Below the pieces are notes generated by a model. The model was not told the origin of the DNA and did no database searches. It was given only the letters and a program-made list of their open reading frames with translations. DNA of 64,000 nt, taken from contig JANJXX010000003.1 in NCBI GenBank assembly GCA_024720975.1, positions 1 to 64,000 of the forward strand, written 5' to 3'. Positions 46,046 through 54,167 of the stretch are shown one piece after another (within the stretch, counting starts at the first letter, position 1; each line of letters begins with the position of its first letter). Made by a program: the position numbers and the translations under genes. The stretch is from Thermoproteota archaeon. Lineage in GTDB: Archaea; Asgardarchaeota; Njordarchaeia; Njordarchaeales; Panguiarchaeaceae.

Positions 46046-47290
46046 TTAGTAATTGGACTTTTTATATAGTACTATGGATAGGGGAATTCCTATAGAATAT
46101 ATTGCAACACCTAACCCTAGAATTACTGACATTAGTGTTATGTTCTTTTCTGCTCCTATCACCCACGAAATAATACCACCTGCTATGTCTCCAAGTGCCA
46201 TGAATATGATGCTTGCCAAATTTCGCACTGCATGGGCTTCTGACTCTCTCGTCTCAATGCTATATATTGTTGTAAGCGATATTAGTTCTAGATTTATGAT
46301 TGTCCAAAGCGGAGCAAGCCAGAATATTATAGATAATGTAAAGTCCCAGCTAAATACTAATAGGGCCATTAGCAAGGTTCTTATAAGCAGGGTACAAATA
46401 AGTATTCTCTCTTCGCCAAGTTTTTTGCTAACTGCCCCAACTAAATATGGTGCTCCAATACTTAAAATCCCACTCACACCAGAAAGTACACCATATAGAG
46501 TCTTGGATCCTACGATCATGTAGAACTTTATTATAAATACTAGGAAGTATAATGAAGACCCAAAACTTAGAACACCAACAATTGCAAGCAGGTATACTAG
46601 CAGGTTATCTTTGCTCGGTAAAGATAAACTCCAAGCAGCCTTAAAGGCTTCCTTAAAGGATATAGAACTTTCTGCAAAAATCTCACTGTAAGAGCCTATT
46701 ACTAGTAGACCTAAAAGTACTGACAAAATTGATACCAACAAGACTGGCTTTAAGCCAATGGTATCGACAAGTATACCTGAAACAAAGCTACCCAGAGTCC
46801 ACCCGATAGCGTCTGAAGCAACAAATATGCCCGACGCTAGGCTTACCCTCTCTCTGCCGAGAGATGTTGTTATTGCCGCGGCTAATGCACCGCCACCAAC
46901 TGATATACTAAGTCCTACCATCGCGGAGAACATGGCGATTGAGATGACATTAATGAATTTTGTCTCAACACATAGATAAAATGTGATGTATGCTGCAAGC
47001 AGAATGATTAATTCTATCACTATGAATTTCTTCCTACCAGTCCTGTCGGCGTATATGCCCAGAGCTCTAGAGAATGTGAGCATAACAAGACTTTGTGATA
47101 TGTATGTTATTGCCATCTCTAGAAAACTAAATCCGAGATCCCACATATATAATGGGAGAATTGTCCAGAATACCGAAATCGAAAACCCCAAAACTACTGC
47201 TGTTATTGATAGGCTTAATAAACCCGACCTCAAAGCAAACACCAACAAATCTGGTACTTGAAGATCGAAGACAGCAACAGAGTTTACCAA
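46046..47290 (-). CDS. MFS transporter
   Basis: GIYADRTGRKK motif A; about 12 TM helices. Confidence 0.85.
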   Translation of the reverse strand: MVNSVAVFDLQVPDLLVFALRSGLLSLSITAVVLGFSISVFWTILPLYMWDLGFSFLEMAITYISQSLVMLTFSRALGIYADRTGRKKFIVIELIILLAAYITFYLCVETKFINVISIAMFSAMVGLSISVGGGALAAAITTSLGRERVSLASGIFVASDAIGWTLGSFVSGILVDTIGLKPVLLVSILSVLLGLLVIGSYSEIFAESSISFKEAFKAAWSLSLPSKDNLLVYLLAIVGVLSFGSSLYFLVFIIKFYMIVGSKTLYGVLSGVSGILSIGAPYLVGAVSKKLGEERILICTLLIRTLLMALLVFSWDFTLSIIFWLAPLWTIINLELISLTTIYSIETRESEAHAVRNLASIIFMALGDIAGGIISWVIGAEKNITLMSVILGLGVAIYSIGIPLSIVLYKKSNY

Positions 47291-47371: not shown

Positions 47372-48544
47372 TTGGATCAAGAGGTAGTTTTTCCACTTGT
47401 CGCCTTCGTTGGACAGGACTTATTCAAGTTAGCCCTACTGGCTATAGCAGTTAATCCATCAATTGGAGGACTCTTAGTTAGGGGAGAAAAGGGCACTGGA
47501 AAATCCGTCCTGGTGCGGGCCCTGGCCGATGTTCTTCTACCAATAGAAGTAGTAGCCGATTGTCCATTTAACTGCGATCCTCACAACCCACTTCTAATGT
47601 GTCCACAGTGTCGTGAGCGTTATAATCGGGGAGAGAAACTGCCAGTGAAGCAGATGAAAATGAAGGTTATCACCCTTCCAATAGGAGCGACTGAGGATAT
47701 GGTTCTCGGCACAATAGATATCGAGAAAGTTCTCAAGGAAGGAAAACCGGCATTAAAACCAGGTATATTAGCGCGAGCAAATAGAAATATTCTTTACATA
47801 GATGAGATAAATTTATTGCCTGATCACTTGGTAGACATAATACTGGATGCTGCTGCAATGGGTTTTAACTACGTTGAAAGAGAGAACATAAGCTTCTCGC
47901 ACCCAGCTAAATTCATTCTAGTAGGCACAATGAACCCAGAAGAGGGTGACATTCGACCGCAACTACTAGATAGACTCTCACTGTGCGTGGACGTGAAGGG
48001 TATAGATTCTCCAGAACTACGCGCGGAGATTATTAAGAGGAATATGGAATTTCAGCTAGACCCCATAGCGTTTAGAGAGCGATACAAGGAGCAGACGGAG
48101 AATTTAAGAAATAGAATCGCCTATGCTAAAAGCCTCATAAATAGCGTTGAAATTAGTGATGCGATGATACTCCTAATAGCAAAACTATGTAGCACTCTTG
48201 AGGTTGACGGACACCGTCCTGACATCGTCATTGCTCAGACAGCAAGAGCTCTTGCAGCATTAGATGGAAGAGATAGCGTTGAACCTTCTGACATTCAAAT
48301 AGCAGCTCAGCTGGCTCTTATACATAGAACGCGAAAGGGTGGTCTTCTAGAGCCACCAACACTGGAAGAGATTGAGGAAGCATTCAAGAAAGCATTAAAA
48401 GAAGTAAAATCAAAGCTCACTATTAAAATCGAGGAACGCTACAAGACAGCCAGAGAGTACATCGAAAACATTCTCTTGACTCCTATAGTGCCTAAAGACA
48501 AAGGTAAAGTTTCTTTGAAGGGTGAACAGCACTTTTTTCGATGA
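47372..48544 (+). CDS. ChlI/BchI-like chelatase AAA+ ATPase
   Basis: FPLVAFVGQ, GEKGTGKS (Walker A), PIGATED, YIDEINLL (Walker B), GTMNPEEG..RPQLLDR, VDGHR. Confidence 0.92.
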   Translation: MDQEVVFPLVAFVGQDLFKLALLAIAVNPSIGGLLVRGEKGTGKSVLVRALADVLLPIEVVADCPFNCDPHNPLLMCPQCRERYNRGEKLPVKQMKMKVITLPIGATEDMVLGTIDIEKVLKEGKPALKPGILARANRNILYIDEINLLPDHLVDIILDAAAMGFNYVERENISFSHPAKFILVGTMNPEEGDIRPQLLDRLSLCVDVKGIDSPELRAEIIKRNMEFQLDPIAFRERYKEQTENLRNRIAYAKSLINSVEISDAMILLIAKLCSTLEVDGHRPDIVIAQTARALAALDGRDSVEPSDIQIAAQLALIHRTRKGGLLEPPTLEEIEEAFKKALKEVKSKLTIKIEERYKTAREYIENILLTPIVPKDKGKVSLKGEQHFFR

Positions 48545-49793
48545 AAGTGAGATACCCGATCAGATAAGAAAACTACCTCGAAAGTCAAAATCCTTGAATA
48601 ACCTGAAGAGCATCGATAAAGAGAACGTTGACAAATTCCTGAGTAGCGATAGGAAAAGGAGTATTCTAAAAGCATTCTTCAAAGCAAGATTACTCGAACA
48701 TATAAGACATTCAATACCAATCAGGGGTAAAATTAATATCAAGCCCGACGTTGAGTATTCAGAGCATGCACACGCAAGAAAAGCAAGACTAGGAGTAGCC
48801 AAAGTCAAAATTGTTGAAGAGGACTTTCCGATATTGGAGAAAGTCAGCATCAGGGATCTCTTGTCGATGCCATCAATAAAACGCGCAAATACAACAGCGC
48901 CAAAATTAAGGCGTATCCGTCCCATGCGTGCAGAAGGGAGCTATTATGGTCTGAATTACACAGCGACATACGGTTCTAGAGGATTCTACGTGTCTTACAC
49001 AATGAATAAGAAATTCCATAGTAGAATAGCGCTAGTACCGACACTAATATCAAGGCTTCTATATCAACGGGGAAAGGTGAGTTCGGGAGAAATAAAATTC
49101 GAGTTAAGAGAGGGAAAACAAAGGCTTCTACTTGTAATAGTCTTAGATGCAAGCGAAAGCATGCAGGCATTTATCCCCATAATCGCACGCACCCTATTAC
49201 GCTTTCATGAACGAGCATGGAAGCTGCGAAGCCTCACTGGCCTAATATCAGTACAAGAGAACACGACAAAAGTTCTAGTCTATCCAACGACAAATATTAA
49301 CAAAATTATTAGCGGCTTCTTCCAAGTGGAGTTCTGGGGTAGGACGCCACTTGCACTTGGCCTCCTTAGGGCATTCAGGCTGATATTATCTATGCATGCT
49401 AAGTCTCCTGATTTAGTACCTAGGGTCATTTTATTCTCCGATGGACTAGCTAACATACCTCTTCAAATACCGGTTGACAGAAATGTAAGAAATTACTTTG
49501 AATCTGATGCTCAAGCGGATGTAATTGCTGCTGCTAGACTACTTGCAAGAAGAAACGTAAAGCTAATAACTGTCAATCCATGGCACATTAACTACTGGCC
49601 CGCAAAGTATATAATATCCCCATCTGAACTTCTCAAAATTGCAACTAGAATCACCGGGGGTATTTACTTAGGCTTCAATTTAAGCCAGGAACATCCATCA
49701 ATAATACCACCCAGAATGATTAACATTGACGATGCCACCGTGGAGGAGCTCGTAGATAGGATCCTGTGTGCAATATTTAAGTCAATTAGCTGA
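48522..49793 (+). CDS. vWA (ChlD/BchD C-terminal-like) domain protein; probably the frameshifted 3' half of a chlD-like gene
   Basis: VLDASESM (MIDAS DxSxS), GRTPLALGL, FSDGLAN. Overlaps the ATPase ORF in the +1 frame across a T6 run. Confidence 0.82.
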   Translation: MNSTFFDESEIPDQIRKLPRKSKSLNNLKSIDKENVDKFLSSDRKRSILKAFFKARLLEHIRHSIPIRGKINIKPDVEYSEHAHARKARLGVAKVKIVEEDFPILEKVSIRDLLSMPSIKRANTTAPKLRRIRPMRAEGSYYGLNYTATYGSRGFYVSYTMNKKFHSRIALVPTLISRLLYQRGKVSSGEIKFELREGKQRLLLVIVLDASESMQAFIPIIARTLLRFHERAWKLRSLTGLISVQENTTKVLVYPTTNINKIISGFFQVEFWGRTPLALGLLRAFRLILSMHAKSPDLVPRVILFSDGLANIPLQIPVDRNVRNYFESDAQADVIAAARLLARRNVKLITVNPWHINYWPAKYIISPSELLKIATRITGGIYLGFNLSQEHPSIIPPRMINIDDATVEELVDRILCAIFKSIS

Positions 49794-49913: not shown

Positions 49914-50354
49914 GTGATCAATGTGAGTATAGAGAAACCCGAAAAGCCTGATGGTTTGTACCTATACGAAAACGGAGCCTGGATTCAAAAATCCCAAGAA
50001 GACTTCACTGAAGGAGTTCACATAGTATACTTTAACAATAAAGAGTGCTTCGCCTGCCTGTTATTTAATGCTACATGGAATAAATTCGTAGAACTGACTA
50101 ATTCAAGCAATCTAAAATTCTGGACTGTTATCTGCTCTTGGTTTGCCAAGAAGTGCTCAGATGATAGGGCCAAATGGTTATTCGAAAATTATCAAGTCAA
50201 ATCATCACCGACAATACTAATAATAAGAGACGGCGTCATAATAAAGACAATAAAGGGCTCCTTAAGCTTAGAGGAACTCGAGAAACAAATAAAAGACGTA
50301 CTTGAGGGAAAAGAGGAACAAAAGGAAGACCTAACAAAAAGATTTGTATGCTGA
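49914..50354 (+). CDS. Thioredoxin-fold protein
   Basis: VYFNNKECFAC (CxxC), SSPTILI..DG (cis-Pro loop); extra CSWFAKKC. Confidence 0.8.
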   Translation: MINVSIEKPEKPDGLYLYENGAWIQKSQEDFTEGVHIVYFNNKECFACLLFNATWNKFVELTNSSNLKFWTVICSWFAKKCSDDRAKWLFENYQVKSSPTILIIRDGVIIKTIKGSLSLEELEKQIKDVLEGKEEQKEDLTKRFVC

Positions 50355-51390: not shown

Positions 51391-52812
51391 TTGTCTAGTT
51401 CGGTGTATTCCATGTGGGATCTTCTGGAATTTGCCGTTGAAGAGAGTCTGAGCCTTAACGCAAGCTTTGTTGAAGTTCGAGGCGAGAGGCAGACTTTAAC
51501 CACAATCAGATTTGTTAATAATGTTCTTAAGTCTGTGGAGTCAACGTCTTTGATTGGAATAGGAGTAACTGTCATTGTTGGTAAATCTAGGGGCCACGGT
51601 TTCACAAGTGTACTCACAAAGGAAGGTCTGAGGGATGCTATAAGGAAGGCTATAGATTCTGCTAAGGGATTGACTAAGGCTGCGGAACTTTCTGCTGAGC
51701 CTGCGGAGTATAAACCTAAAGAATATCACGGTTTTGTTCCTTCTAGGAATAAGGACCCAGAAACTACCGAGTTTGAGGAAAAGTTCGAAATTCTTAAAAG
51801 AGGAATAAATGAGATAAAAGGACTTGAGGGAATAGCATCTATTGCTGCTATTTATGCTGAATTACATGGTGAGAGATACTTTATAAATAGTGAGGGTCTA
51901 AAAAGATTCTGGAGACCACTAAGACACGGAATTCTCTTCCAAGTTGTTGCTAGAAAAGATGGAAATATCGGATCTGGACGTGAGTTATTTGCATCATCCT
52001 TCGGTCTGGAAGTCTATGAGAAAGAGAAACCTGAGGAAATCGCTATGAAGGCCTATAAAGGTGCTATTGAATCTGCTCAGGCAAAGACAATACAGCCGGG
52101 AAAATACCCATTAATAGCTGACCCCGACTTCGCCGGTGTTCTAGCTCACGAGAGTTTCGGGCATCTAACAGAATCTGACTATGTTGCTACTAAGGCTAGT
52201 ATACTGTACGGAAGACTCCATGAGCAGCTAGGATCAGAATACGCGACAATAATAGAATCTGGTGACCCCGTAAATTACGGATTTTTCATACCTTACGACG
52301 ATGAAGGCGTGGCTACTGAGAAAATAATCCTCCTCAACAAGGGGGTCTTGGAAAACTATTTGCACTCTCGTAGTACAGCTAAGCTCATGAATATGCAGCC
52401 AACTGGGAATGCTAGGGCGATAAACTTTATGTTTCCAGCGATAGTTCGCATGAGGAATACATACTTTGATTCTGGAGACATGACCAAAGATGAATTATTT
52501 GAACTTGTCAAGCGCGGAGTTTATGTTGAGGGAAGCACAGGCGGTCAAACAGAAGACACCGGAAACTTCACATTTGGTGCAAACAGAGCATACTATATTG
52601 AGAACTCCGAGATAGCATATCCGCTTAAGGGTGTTGTGGTTAGGGCTCACATACTTGACTTTTTAAGGAATATCATAGGAGCTTCAAAAGAGGTAATTGT
52701 TGGAACGTCCCCACTTGGAGGCTGCGGAAAGGCCGGTCAATCACCACTACCCGTGGGAGGAGGCGGGCCATATTTAGCCATAAAAGAAGCCTTAATAGGA
52801 GGAGGTGTGTAG
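51391..52812 (+). CDS. tldD: TldD metalloprotease subunit
   Basis: GVLAHESFGH (HExxxH), YDDEG, TGNARA, RMRNT, CGK…QSPLPVGGGGP. Confidence 0.92.
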   Translation: MSSSVYSMWDLLEFAVEESLSLNASFVEVRGERQTLTTIRFVNNVLKSVESTSLIGIGVTVIVGKSRGHGFTSVLTKEGLRDAIRKAIDSAKGLTKAAELSAEPAEYKPKEYHGFVPSRNKDPETTEFEEKFEILKRGINEIKGLEGIASIAAIYAELHGERYFINSEGLKRFWRPLRHGILFQVVARKDGNIGSGRELFASSFGLEVYEKEKPEEIAMKAYKGAIESAQAKTIQPGKYPLIADPDFAGVLAHESFGHLTESDYVATKASILYGRLHEQLGSEYATIIESGDPVNYGFFIPYDDEGVATEKIILLNKGVLENYLHSRSTAKLMNMQPTGNARAINFMFPAIVRMRNTYFDSGDMTKDELFELVKRGVYVEGSTGGQTEDTGNFTFGANRAYYIENSEIAYPLKGVVVRAHILDFLRNIIGASKEVIVGTSPLGGCGKAGQSPLPVGGGGPYLAIKEALIGGGV

Positions 52813-52814
52813 AC

Positions 52815-54167
52815 TTGAATGAGAGGATAAATAAACTTATCAATATTGGGGAGAAAATAGTTAGTAAGAGGGATGAATTAAACGTAGATGATATTGAGAT
52901 ATATTTATACGAGGCTGATGTATTCAACTCCATAGTGATTAATAACTACGTTACATCGCAATCTGGAGTCGATGCCGGAGTCGGAATTCGTGTTTCTATA
53001 GGGAAGAAGGTAGCGTTTACATCTGTTTCAAGTATTGCTGAAGAGAGAATCTTAGAGGCTGCAAAACTTGCTGGTAAAATTGCAAAAGTTAAAGAGGAAG
53101 ATCCCAATTTCACACACTTGCCAGATCCAATGCGCGGTTATGAGAGGCATGGAATCTTCGACGCTGAGCTCGCATCCCTTAACCCAGAAGAACTTGCAGA
53201 CTACGTTTCAAAACTTGTTCAGGAATCAAAAAGAATACAAAACTTGAAAAAGATGAGTCTACACCTAACAAAAGGAAGCTATACCTATGCTGTGGTAAGT
53301 TCCAGAGGAGTTAATGTTGGCGATTATGGCACGATGATTTCCACGTGGTACGAGATAGATCTGAAGCGCAACGACAAAATAGGAAAGGGAATTGACTTCT
53401 ATATTTCCAGGAAATTCGATGAGGAAGCGCTATTCTCAACCATACCAAAAGCTGAGGCAATGGCACGAGAGGGACTCGAGGCAAAAAAGATTGCTGGGCC
53501 TCTCAAGTGTGATGCTGTAATCGATCCAATGATACTCTCGAGCATTTTGTGGCCCCTCGTATACAATGTATCAGCTTTAGCTGTGCAGGAGCAGAGAAGT
53601 AGATTCATAGGAATGATAGACAAGCAAGTTGCGAATCCAAATTTGACGATACTAGACGATGGCACGCTACCGGATGGTCTATCAACTAACATAAGCGATG
53701 ATGAGGGAATACCAATGCAGAGAAAAGTGATAATAGATCGTGGAATCCTTAAAACCTACCTCTACGATACATATACGGCATATCGGGAGAATAGACCAAG
53801 TACTGGGAATGCTAAAAGAAGGGACTATAAATCTCAACCTTCACCATCACAAACGAATCTTGTTATTGAAAGCACAACGAGCAAAAAACTCGAAGATATT
53901 ATAAGGGAAATTGATAAAGGCATTCTATTGCGAGGTATTGCCATGGGCTCGCATTTAATAGATCCAATTAAGGGATCAATGGCAATTACGTGCTTAAACG
54001 CACTATATATCGAGGGAGGCGAAGTTCGTTATCCCATCGAAGCCGTGAGTATGAGTGCCGATTACTTTGAATTCCTGAGAAATATGGACACAGCAGGTTC
54101 TGATCATAGGATAACTCCTGTTGGGAAGCTGCCTACAGTAGTTGTTAGAAATGTGTTCTTTAGCTGA
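52815..54167 (+). CDS. pmbA: PmbA/TldE non-catalytic partner
   Basis: GVGIRV, DDEG, YLYD, STGNA, TNL; no HExxxH; directly follows tldD. Confidence 0.9.
   Translation: MNERINKLINIGEKIVSKRDELNVDDIEIYLYEADVFNSIVINNYVTSQSGVDAGVGIRVSIGKKVAFTSVSSIAEERILEAAKLAGKIAKVKEEDPNFTHLPDPMRGYERHGIFDAELASLNPEELADYVSKLVQESKRIQNLKKMSLHLTKGSYTYAVVSSRGVNVGDYGTMISTWYEIDLKRNDKIGKGIDFYISRKFDEEALFSTIPKAEAMAREGLEAKKIAGPLKCDAVIDPMILSSILWPLVYNVSALAVQEQRSRFIGMIDKQVANPNLTILDDGTLPDGLSTNISDDEGIPMQRKVIIDRGILKTYLYDTYTAYRENRPSTGNAKRRDYKSQPSPSQTNLVIESTTSKKLEDIIREIDKGILLRGIAMGSHLIDPIKGSMAITCLNALYIEGGEVRYPIEAVSMSADYFEFLRNMDTAGSDHRITPVGKLPTVVVRNVFFS

Follow-up and report, generated by a model that had tools for sequence, protein, structure and literature searches.

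A conserved UUU_UUU_CGN junction as a candidate +1 frameshift site in a chelatase-type gene of Asgard archaea

Frameshifted chlD genes (fs-chlD), which make up the 'magnesium chelatase' recoding cluster, have been described (PMC3711429, PMC9227772) and reviewed (PMC5009743). In these genes an open reading frame (ORF) for a ChlI-like AAA+ protein overlaps an ORF for a vWA protein, and the small subunit results from standard decoding, the medium, ChlD-like subunit from a frameshift. Homologues fused in frame are known, archaea belong to the cluster, and some carriers have neither chlH/cobN nor tetrapyrrole pathways ('stage 1' genomes, PMC9227772). Here we describe a locus with the same features at positions 47372 to 49793 of a 64,000-nucleotide stretch (the window; positions 1 to 64,000 of contig JANJXX010000003.1, assembly GCA_024720975.1) from an archaeon of the Asgardarchaeota. 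The fs-chlD signals that these papers describe and test shift by -1 on A-rich runs (A_AAA_AAR, A7-A11), in many cases with a structure downstream, and this -1 shifting has been verified in E. coli (PMC3711429, PMC5009743); +1 fs-chlD genes exist and are rarer (PMC9227772). In contrast, the change of frame at our locus is +1, the site is UUU_UUU_CGN (six T, or T6, followed by CG) and no structure accompanies it. While the production of two proteins from one chelatase-type gene is already published, the +1 UUU_UUU_CGN signal seems to be a new variant.

UUU_CGN is itself an established +1 shift motif, as in the UCC_UUU_CGU of influenza A PA-X (PMC3498833, as cited in PMC5009743). It also serves as a +1 site in plant amalgaviruses (PMC5052127), and UUU_Ynn is +1-prone in bacteria (PMC5009743, PMC5052127). 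The initial annotation of the window, which proposed a +1 (or -2) shift at this junction, had pointed to both the recoding of chlD-type genes (PMC3711429, PMC9227772) and the use of UUU_CGN by some RNA viruses (PMC5009743, PMC5052127), and the literature bears it out on each. Our literature search, which did not cover the list of +1 signals in Antonov 2020 (Mol Biol Evol 37:2268), found UUU_CGN reported only for viruses, and it returned no paper on programmed ribosomal frameshifting of a cellular gene in Asgard archaea. A review from 2021 on recoding in archaea lists a single demonstrated programmed frameshift in a cellular gene, which is a -1 shift, and no +1 (PMC8211752).

Two overlapping frames at the window locus

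The first frame, ORF1 (47372..48544, + strand), opens with TTG and encodes by standard decoding a ChlI/BchI-like AAA+ ATPase of 390 residues, with Walker A (GEKGTGKS, 47483-47506) and Walker B (LYIDEINLL, 47792-47818) motifs. It matches profile TIGR02030 (E 3.9e-117) and the ChlI structure 6l8d in PDB (E 3e-99), and it is 50-60% similar to the solved ChlI/BchI structures (6l8d, 8osf, 1g8p). Just after Walker A lies an insert with four cysteines (Cys4; CPFNC...CPQC, 47561-47611) that is absent from classical BchI and is probably a zinc-binding knuckle. The second frame, ORF2 (48519..49793, + strand), is +1 relative to ORF1 and comprises 424 codons up to the stop TGA at 49791-93. It encodes a basic linker of ~140 residues, followed by a vWA domain in which the MIDAS motif is intact (DASES, 49146-49160) and then by a C-terminal region; an ATPase module is lacking from this frame. 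The vWA domain matches that of BchD (2x31) at E 5e-4. Both halves fall on one profile, TIGR02442 (fused AAA-vWA 'putative cobaltochelatase'), of which ORF1 matches positions 1-318 and ORF2 positions 409-613. Taken separately the halves score 480.9 and 83.3 bits, the curated cut-off of 779 bits being set for the whole protein.

The two frames share only 23 nucleotides (48519-48541). ORF1 ends CAC (48530), TTT (48533), TTT (48536), CGA (48539), TGA (48542), and the +1 frame, after a TGA at 48516..48518 that closes it upstream, reads AGG GTG AAC AGC ACT TTT TTC GAT, so that it opens five codons ahead of the T-run. This is the layout given by the initial annotation, and we confirm it at 48519-48544. 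A shift from ORF1 into ORF2 is bounded by the upstream TGA on the 5' side and by the stop of the short product (TGA, 48542..48544) on the 3' side; the proposed site, TTT_TTT_CGA in the 0 frame (48533..48541), lies between them and is supported by motif conservation and matched codon controls. A +1 shift there would give a product of 806 residues with the junction ...GEQHFFDESEIPDQIR, of which ORF2 contributes the C-terminal 417; the expected trans-frame peptide is ...HFFDESEIPDQIR. A -2 shift would give ...HFFFDESE... and 807 residues, with three Phe instead of the two Phe (FFD) of the +1 product.

Conservation of the junction in Asgard archaea

The source assembly (1.36 Mb, 29 contigs, 40% G+C, 81% complete) has as its nearest named public records metagenome-assembled genomes (MAGs) of Candidatus Njordarchaeota, an Asgard lineage; more distant homologous loci lie in Baldrarchaeota and other Asgard MAGs. 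We searched 41 relatives, 400 genomes of the phylum, the GTDB species genomes and the metagenomes of the Joint Genome Institute (JGI), and recovered 78 loci. Loci and genomes of this comparison set are given L and G numbers below, G000 being the assembly of the window itself. Loci were sorted solely by homology and by the frame relation of their ATPase and vWA matches, not by motif. Three arrangements were found: the vWA part in the +1 frame, the two parts fused in frame, and the vWA part in the -1 frame with a junction run of A8-A11. The last, which corresponds to the fs-chlD type already published, occurs in other Asgard families (L018, L020, L049, L050, L052, L077, L078); L053 and L054, in-frame congeners of these loci, retain an A10 run.

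The 18 distinct +1-split loci come from five GTDB families of Asgard archaea (Njord- and Baldrarchaeota among others) and from independent JGI metagenome assemblies, and these lineages are known solely from MAGs and metagenome contigs. In all 18, TTTTTTCG is found inside the overlap of 20-62 nucleotides, phased as TTT_TTT_CGN in the ATPase frame. Thus both the frame break and the TTT_CG whose retention in orthologues the initial annotation had singled out as a check are kept. What surrounds the site is variable. In relatives the +1 frame opens 2-18 codons ahead of the T-run and the 0-frame stop sits 0-15 codons past CGN; the preceding codon may be CAC, CGC, GAA, CAA, GGC, AAA, AAG, CAG or GAC, the N of CGN is A, C or T, and the codons that follow vary too. 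The C-terminal tail of the ATPase is of low complexity, and a multiple alignment could not place the Phe-Phe-Arg (FFR) of the site independently of the motif. In the genus of the window, FFR lies ~40 residues farther from the AAA lid than in the other families, which argues that the motif follows the junction between the frames instead of keeping a set position in the fold. In none of the 18 split loci does the codon ahead of the run end in T, and the run is never T7 in them. Since a preceding T would create the -1 heptamer U_UUU_UUU and lead into a dead frame, its absence fits a translational constraint.

Conservation of the site at the level of nucleotides exceeds what the encoded peptide would require of it. 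In an alignment of 22 of these genes, used as a matched codon control, six other invariant Phe columns are 32-86% TTT, and each of ten other invariant Arg columns has AGR for half or more of its codons. These mixed columns indicate that synonymous sites are saturated at this divergence; TTC and AGR, each a single-step synonymous change away, are never seen at the site, as expected of a slippery sequence under purifying selection. In the window genome TTT accounts for 56% of Phe codons and CGN for 30% of Arg codons, each CGN codon standing at 2-5.5 per thousand versus 25 per thousand for AGA. Among its ~1019 long ORFs there are 36 FFR tripeptides, and only the one at this site is written TTT_TTT_CGN, which is also the only in-frame TTT_TTT_CGN in those ORFs. 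A scan of the 1.36-Mb assembly for other UUU_CGN +1 junctions returned none besides this site, control motifs giving 0-4 chance matches. In-frame TTT_TTT is under-used 2.3-fold in this genome (88 observed, 205 expected). Only 13% of its Phe-Phe dipeptides are written TTT_TTT versus 31% expected, and T runs of seven or more are very rare in its sense strands; this scarcity may reflect avoidance of oligo-T termination or of slippage.

No other shared element was found around the site. The SD-like (Shine-Dalgarno-like) GGGTGA that the initial annotation noted ~10 nucleotides upstream of the second TTT is present in the window, but it could not be retained as a part of the signal: across 12 loci the 24 upstream nucleotides are purine-rich and hold no shared SD-like element or spacing. 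The sole conserved element at the junction is N_TTT_TTT_CGN.

In-frame fused relatives of 750-860 residues exist, some of them in the genus of the window (L003, L075) and others in Baldrarchaeota (L006, L025, L026) or elsewhere (L019, L055-59). Twelve distinct fused genes read TTT_TTT_CGN at the boundary of ATPase and linker, and in eight of them the run is T7. In the T7 genes (L019, L055-L059, L075, L003) the run forms a phased U_UUU_UUU heptamer; among five that were inspected the -1 frame stops after one or two codons in four (for example TCG_TAA, TCG_AAA_TGA, TCG_CGA_TAG) and after 20 in the fifth, and a -1 slip would thus release a ChlI-like short form. The +1 frame stops 1-15 codons past the re-paired UUC. 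In most of the fused genes a shift would soon run into a stop. On a quick maximum-likelihood tree (IQ-TREE) at least four changes between split and fused arrangement are needed. Among Baldrarchaeota orthologues in conserved synteny, one is split and three are fused. As the fused genes keep the site and the arrangement has changed at least four times, we believe that both arrangements may yield both products. A further contrast is seen between two congeners: G001 has both paralogues fused (L003 at G001:C31 and L075 at G001:C181, reading GAT/CAT_TTT_TTT_CGN with T7), whereas G002 has both split at +1 (L004 and L022), which hints at a genome-wide factor setting the favoured arrangement. The fused paralogue L009/L046 (G017:C14) reads GAT_TTT_TTC_GTT, keeping the T6CG string in the 'post-shift' phase, and its ATPase part has a frame change near residue 118 of the query.

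Proposed ribosomal shifting and the competing explanations

On these comparative data, which agree with the central reading of the initial annotation, we consider it likely that a single recoded gene of the fs-chlD type, with a +1 signal, makes both a short ATPase and a long AAA-vWA protein. Most ribosomes would read ORF1 to the TGA at 48542 and release the 390-residue ChlI-like protein. A fraction would stall while tRNA-Phe occupies the second UUU in the P site and the A site presents the less-used CGA; the P-site tRNA-Phe (anticodon GAA) would then move from UUU (48536-38) to the better-matched UUC (48537-39). The E-site tRNA-Phe could re-pair as well, from UUU to UUU, and retention of the complete T6 may be due to this. 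Decoding would resume at GAU (48540-42) in the vWA frame, and the resulting 806-residue AAA-linker-vWA protein would have the same ATPase module as the short form.

Several observations weigh against this proposal. The 70 nucleotides after the site fold no better than shuffled sequence in the 12 loci (minimum free energy z -1.0 to +1.7), and no stimulatory RNA structure was found there. A simple P-site +1 slip does not need all six Ts to be invariant, and their invariance fits a -2 shift or polymerase slippage too. In the window genome, in-frame TTT_CGN is not avoided (140 occurrences), and TTT precedes CGN as often as it precedes AGR. The rarity of CGN codons is only moderate, and the genome carries single-copy tRNA-Arg genes (anticodons GCG, UCG, CCG) that serve all of them. 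Because TTT_CGN is not avoided, UUU_CGN by itself would not be strongly shifty in this organism, and it must be the full T6 or the context that sets the efficiency. Nor does sequence separate the direction of the shift: the geometry of the frames is as the initial annotation had it, but +1, -2 and the deletion of one U from the transcript are equivalent in this respect. To tell +1 from -2 we also compared how fused orthologues are spaced. A +1 shift makes three split/fused pairs colinear (FF, 6 residues, YVL; FF, 3 residues, ETC; FF, 12 residues, LPKKS), which does not discriminate because any single-base indel gives the same colinearity.

Slippage of the archaeal RNA polymerase on T6, dropping one U or adding two so that a subset of mRNAs is in frame, would in the case of one-U loss give a protein identical to the +1 product. 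The invariance of all six Ts speaks for it, as do the A9-A11 runs of sister families, where slippage is a recognised possibility (PMC3711429, PMC5009743), and the T6/T7 of in-frame relatives, which would be expected with mixed transcripts whatever the genomic frame; the lineages also come from hydrothermal samples, where rU:dA hybrids would be weak. Six residues is short for a cellular RNA polymerase, however, whose known slippage sites are mostly of 8-9 residues or more. A longer run should slip better, yet the run never lengthens to T7 in any of the 18 split loci, and slippage leaves the strict CG after the run and the use of CGN rather than AGR unexplained; on balance we regard it as unlikely. 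A ribosomal -2 shift, in which the P-site tRNA-Phe on the second UUU moves back two bases to UUU before UUC is read, has the same frame geometry as +1 and needs the upstream Us, so that it would explain why the complete T6 is conserved. In nature -2 shifts are rare and as a rule call for strong stimulators, and this site has neither structure nor a conserved flanking element. Moreover, moving from UUU to UUC improves pairing with anticodon GAA while moving from UUU to UUU does not, and a +1 shift, unlike a -2 shift, requires the C that is conserved at position 7; we therefore take a -2 shift to be quite improbable.

The remaining explanations dispense with recoding. Two separate genes could be present, the vWA protein starting on its own at GTG 48522 or at a downstream TTG or ATG, possibly by coupling to termination, and stand-alone pairs of ChlI and vWA proteins exist in nature. 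In the window, GTG 48522 lies four codons before the T-run and is the only start codon of the vWA frame near the junction, the later ones being TTG at 48594, 48834 and 48861; it has no properly spaced SD sequence, which agrees with the remark of the initial annotation that ORF2 has only a GTG start and no clear ribosome-binding site. Although five of the 12 loci have some start codon inside the overlap, its kind and position differ, and seven have none. In L002 and L022 the 43 codons of the vWA frame that follow the T-run include no ATG, GTG or TTG, yet conservation of the peptide sets in at FF: immediately after FF, FFDESEIPDQIRKLPRKS and FFAETQIPERIRKIPKKS correspond within the genus, an LP[KR]KS block is found in other loci, and in L002 a conserved linker peptide, IPxxIRK[LI]P[KR]KS, comes before any start codon. 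Given that start codons are not conserved while the peptide from FF onward is, independent initiation of the vWA protein appears unlikely. Two genes would also leave the nucleotide-level invariance of TTTTTTCG unexplained, and repeated interconversion with in-frame fusions indicates that the long fusion is the functional unit, so that we hold the two-gene explanation as a whole to be very improbable. An assembly error in the homopolymer, or a recent pseudogene, might be suspected in a single MAG of 81% completeness. Two metagenome contigs, L062 (Ga0180301_10003515) and L070 (Ga0190367_1054054), do show a second frame change farther into the vWA part beyond their T6CG junction, which is probably assembly error or decay. 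However, the same break and motif occur in the 18 distinct loci with both ORFs intact over more than 400 codons, and within the same lineages independent assemblies carry one and the same site sequence (for example L002 = L021 = L060 = L061). Since the site recurs in this way, homopolymer error is not a general explanation, and artefact or decay is extremely unlikely as the cause of the split.

Our preferred reading, a ribosomal +1 shift at T6CG, leaves room for a wider and more tentative one, which we put forward as possible but doubtful: that UUU_UUU_CGN is a two-way, fairly efficient switch kept by a whole Asgard subfamily, whichever frame the gene has. If so, split genes would slip to give the long form, and in-frame genes would slip (+1, or -1 on T7) to give the short ChlI-like form, and lineages could flip the default product by one-base indels. 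Such a switch would point to a genome-wide determinant of shift efficiency, for which the supply of tRNA-Arg(CGN) is one candidate, and perhaps also to a regulatory sensor controlling the ratio of I to D subunits.

The putative motor and comparison with known systems

The client of the products is not suggested by the surroundings of the gene. The initial annotation had found no CobN/ChlH large subunit in the window and had asked for a search of the genome; with PF02514 there is no match in the whole assembly, which is 81% complete. Likewise, G002-G004, G006, G009, G010, G012 and G040 gave no match, while control genomes did, and G017 is the sole carrier of a split gene with a CobN/ChlH match within the 41 genomes searched. 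In Asgard genomes that do have CobN, it mostly adjoins a different, in-frame paralogue of 640-720 residues (seven of nine genomes). We found no neighbours conserved across families around the gene. Neighbours do not name a client either: the upstream MFS gene is shared only with the closest relative, and the Baldrarchaeota loci have synteny among themselves but none with the window locus. Because there is neither CobN/ChlH nor a conserved neighbour, we describe the predicted product as a chelatase-type AAA+/vWA motor, with a putative client other than CobN/ChlH, and do not file it as a chelatase. In this the carriers are similar to the 'stage 1' genomes (PMC9227772). By analogy with ChlI/ChlD, both forms would assemble into a mixed AAA+/vWA motor, their ratio set by the efficiency of the shift, and in the proposed model the client of this motor is not a CobN/ChlH subunit. 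As the vWA family is found in 287 of the 400 Asgard genomes searched, the CobN-less setting marks an AAA+/vWA motor that is widespread in these genomes and has a putative client of another kind.

Some further features of the window and its relatives were recorded. The MFS transporter gene (46046-47290, - strand) is divergent from ORF1; downstream lie a gene for a thioredoxin-like protein (49914-50354, + strand) and a TldD/PmbA metallopeptidase pair (51391-54167, + strand). Rfam gave no match anywhere in the window. Open frames of ~500 residues with a vWA domain are common in one large Asgard family. In G000, ARAGORN predicted two 'tRNA-Stop' genes (anticodon TTA) and three tRNAs with odd anticodons and found no tRNA-Phe, results that probably reflect intron-containing tRNAs or false positives in an incomplete MAG.

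With respect to the class I chelatases ChlIDH, BchIDH and CobNST, the long product would have the ChlD architecture of AAA module, linker and MIDAS vWA domain. In contrast to those enzymes, the AAA module of the long form would here be identical to the active short form and not degenerate, the linker has a basic character in place of an acidic, Pro-rich one, and ORF1 bears the Cys4 insert. The proposed output resembles that of E. coli dnaX, in which a long and a short AAA+ protein (tau and gamma) with a shared N-terminus come from one gene; dnaX, however, shifts by -1 on A_AAA_AAG with SD and hairpin stimulators, neither of which is conserved here. E. coli prfB is similar in that, with a slow A site, the P-site tRNA slips by +1 on a codon rich in U (CUU_U), but in prfB the A site holds a stop codon and a closely spaced SD sequence assists, and no SD sequence is conserved at our site. 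If our reading is correct, the idea of obtaining two subunits from one chlD-type gene has arisen on more than one occasion, using different signals (+1 on T6CG, and -1 on poly-A in sister families), and annotation pipelines wrongly split such genes into ChlI and an orphan vWA protein.

The closest likeness in signal is to the PA-X and amalgavirus sites. There too a less-used CGN occupies the A site when the P-site tRNA moves from UUU to UUC, the extension ORF is at +1 and no downstream structure is obligatory. The viral sites act in eukaryotic-virus mRNAs on 80S ribosomes and at low efficiency, about 1%, whereas the present site lies in a cellular archaeal gene; furthermore, the E-site codon is here another UUU and not UCC as in PA-X, and all six Us are invariant. 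Asgard archaea are the closest prokaryotic relatives of eukaryotes, and should the +1 mechanism hold, their ribosomes would respond, at a compact element of eight nucleotides, to the very UUU_CGN signal, a minimal one, of which RNA viruses of eukaryotes make use.

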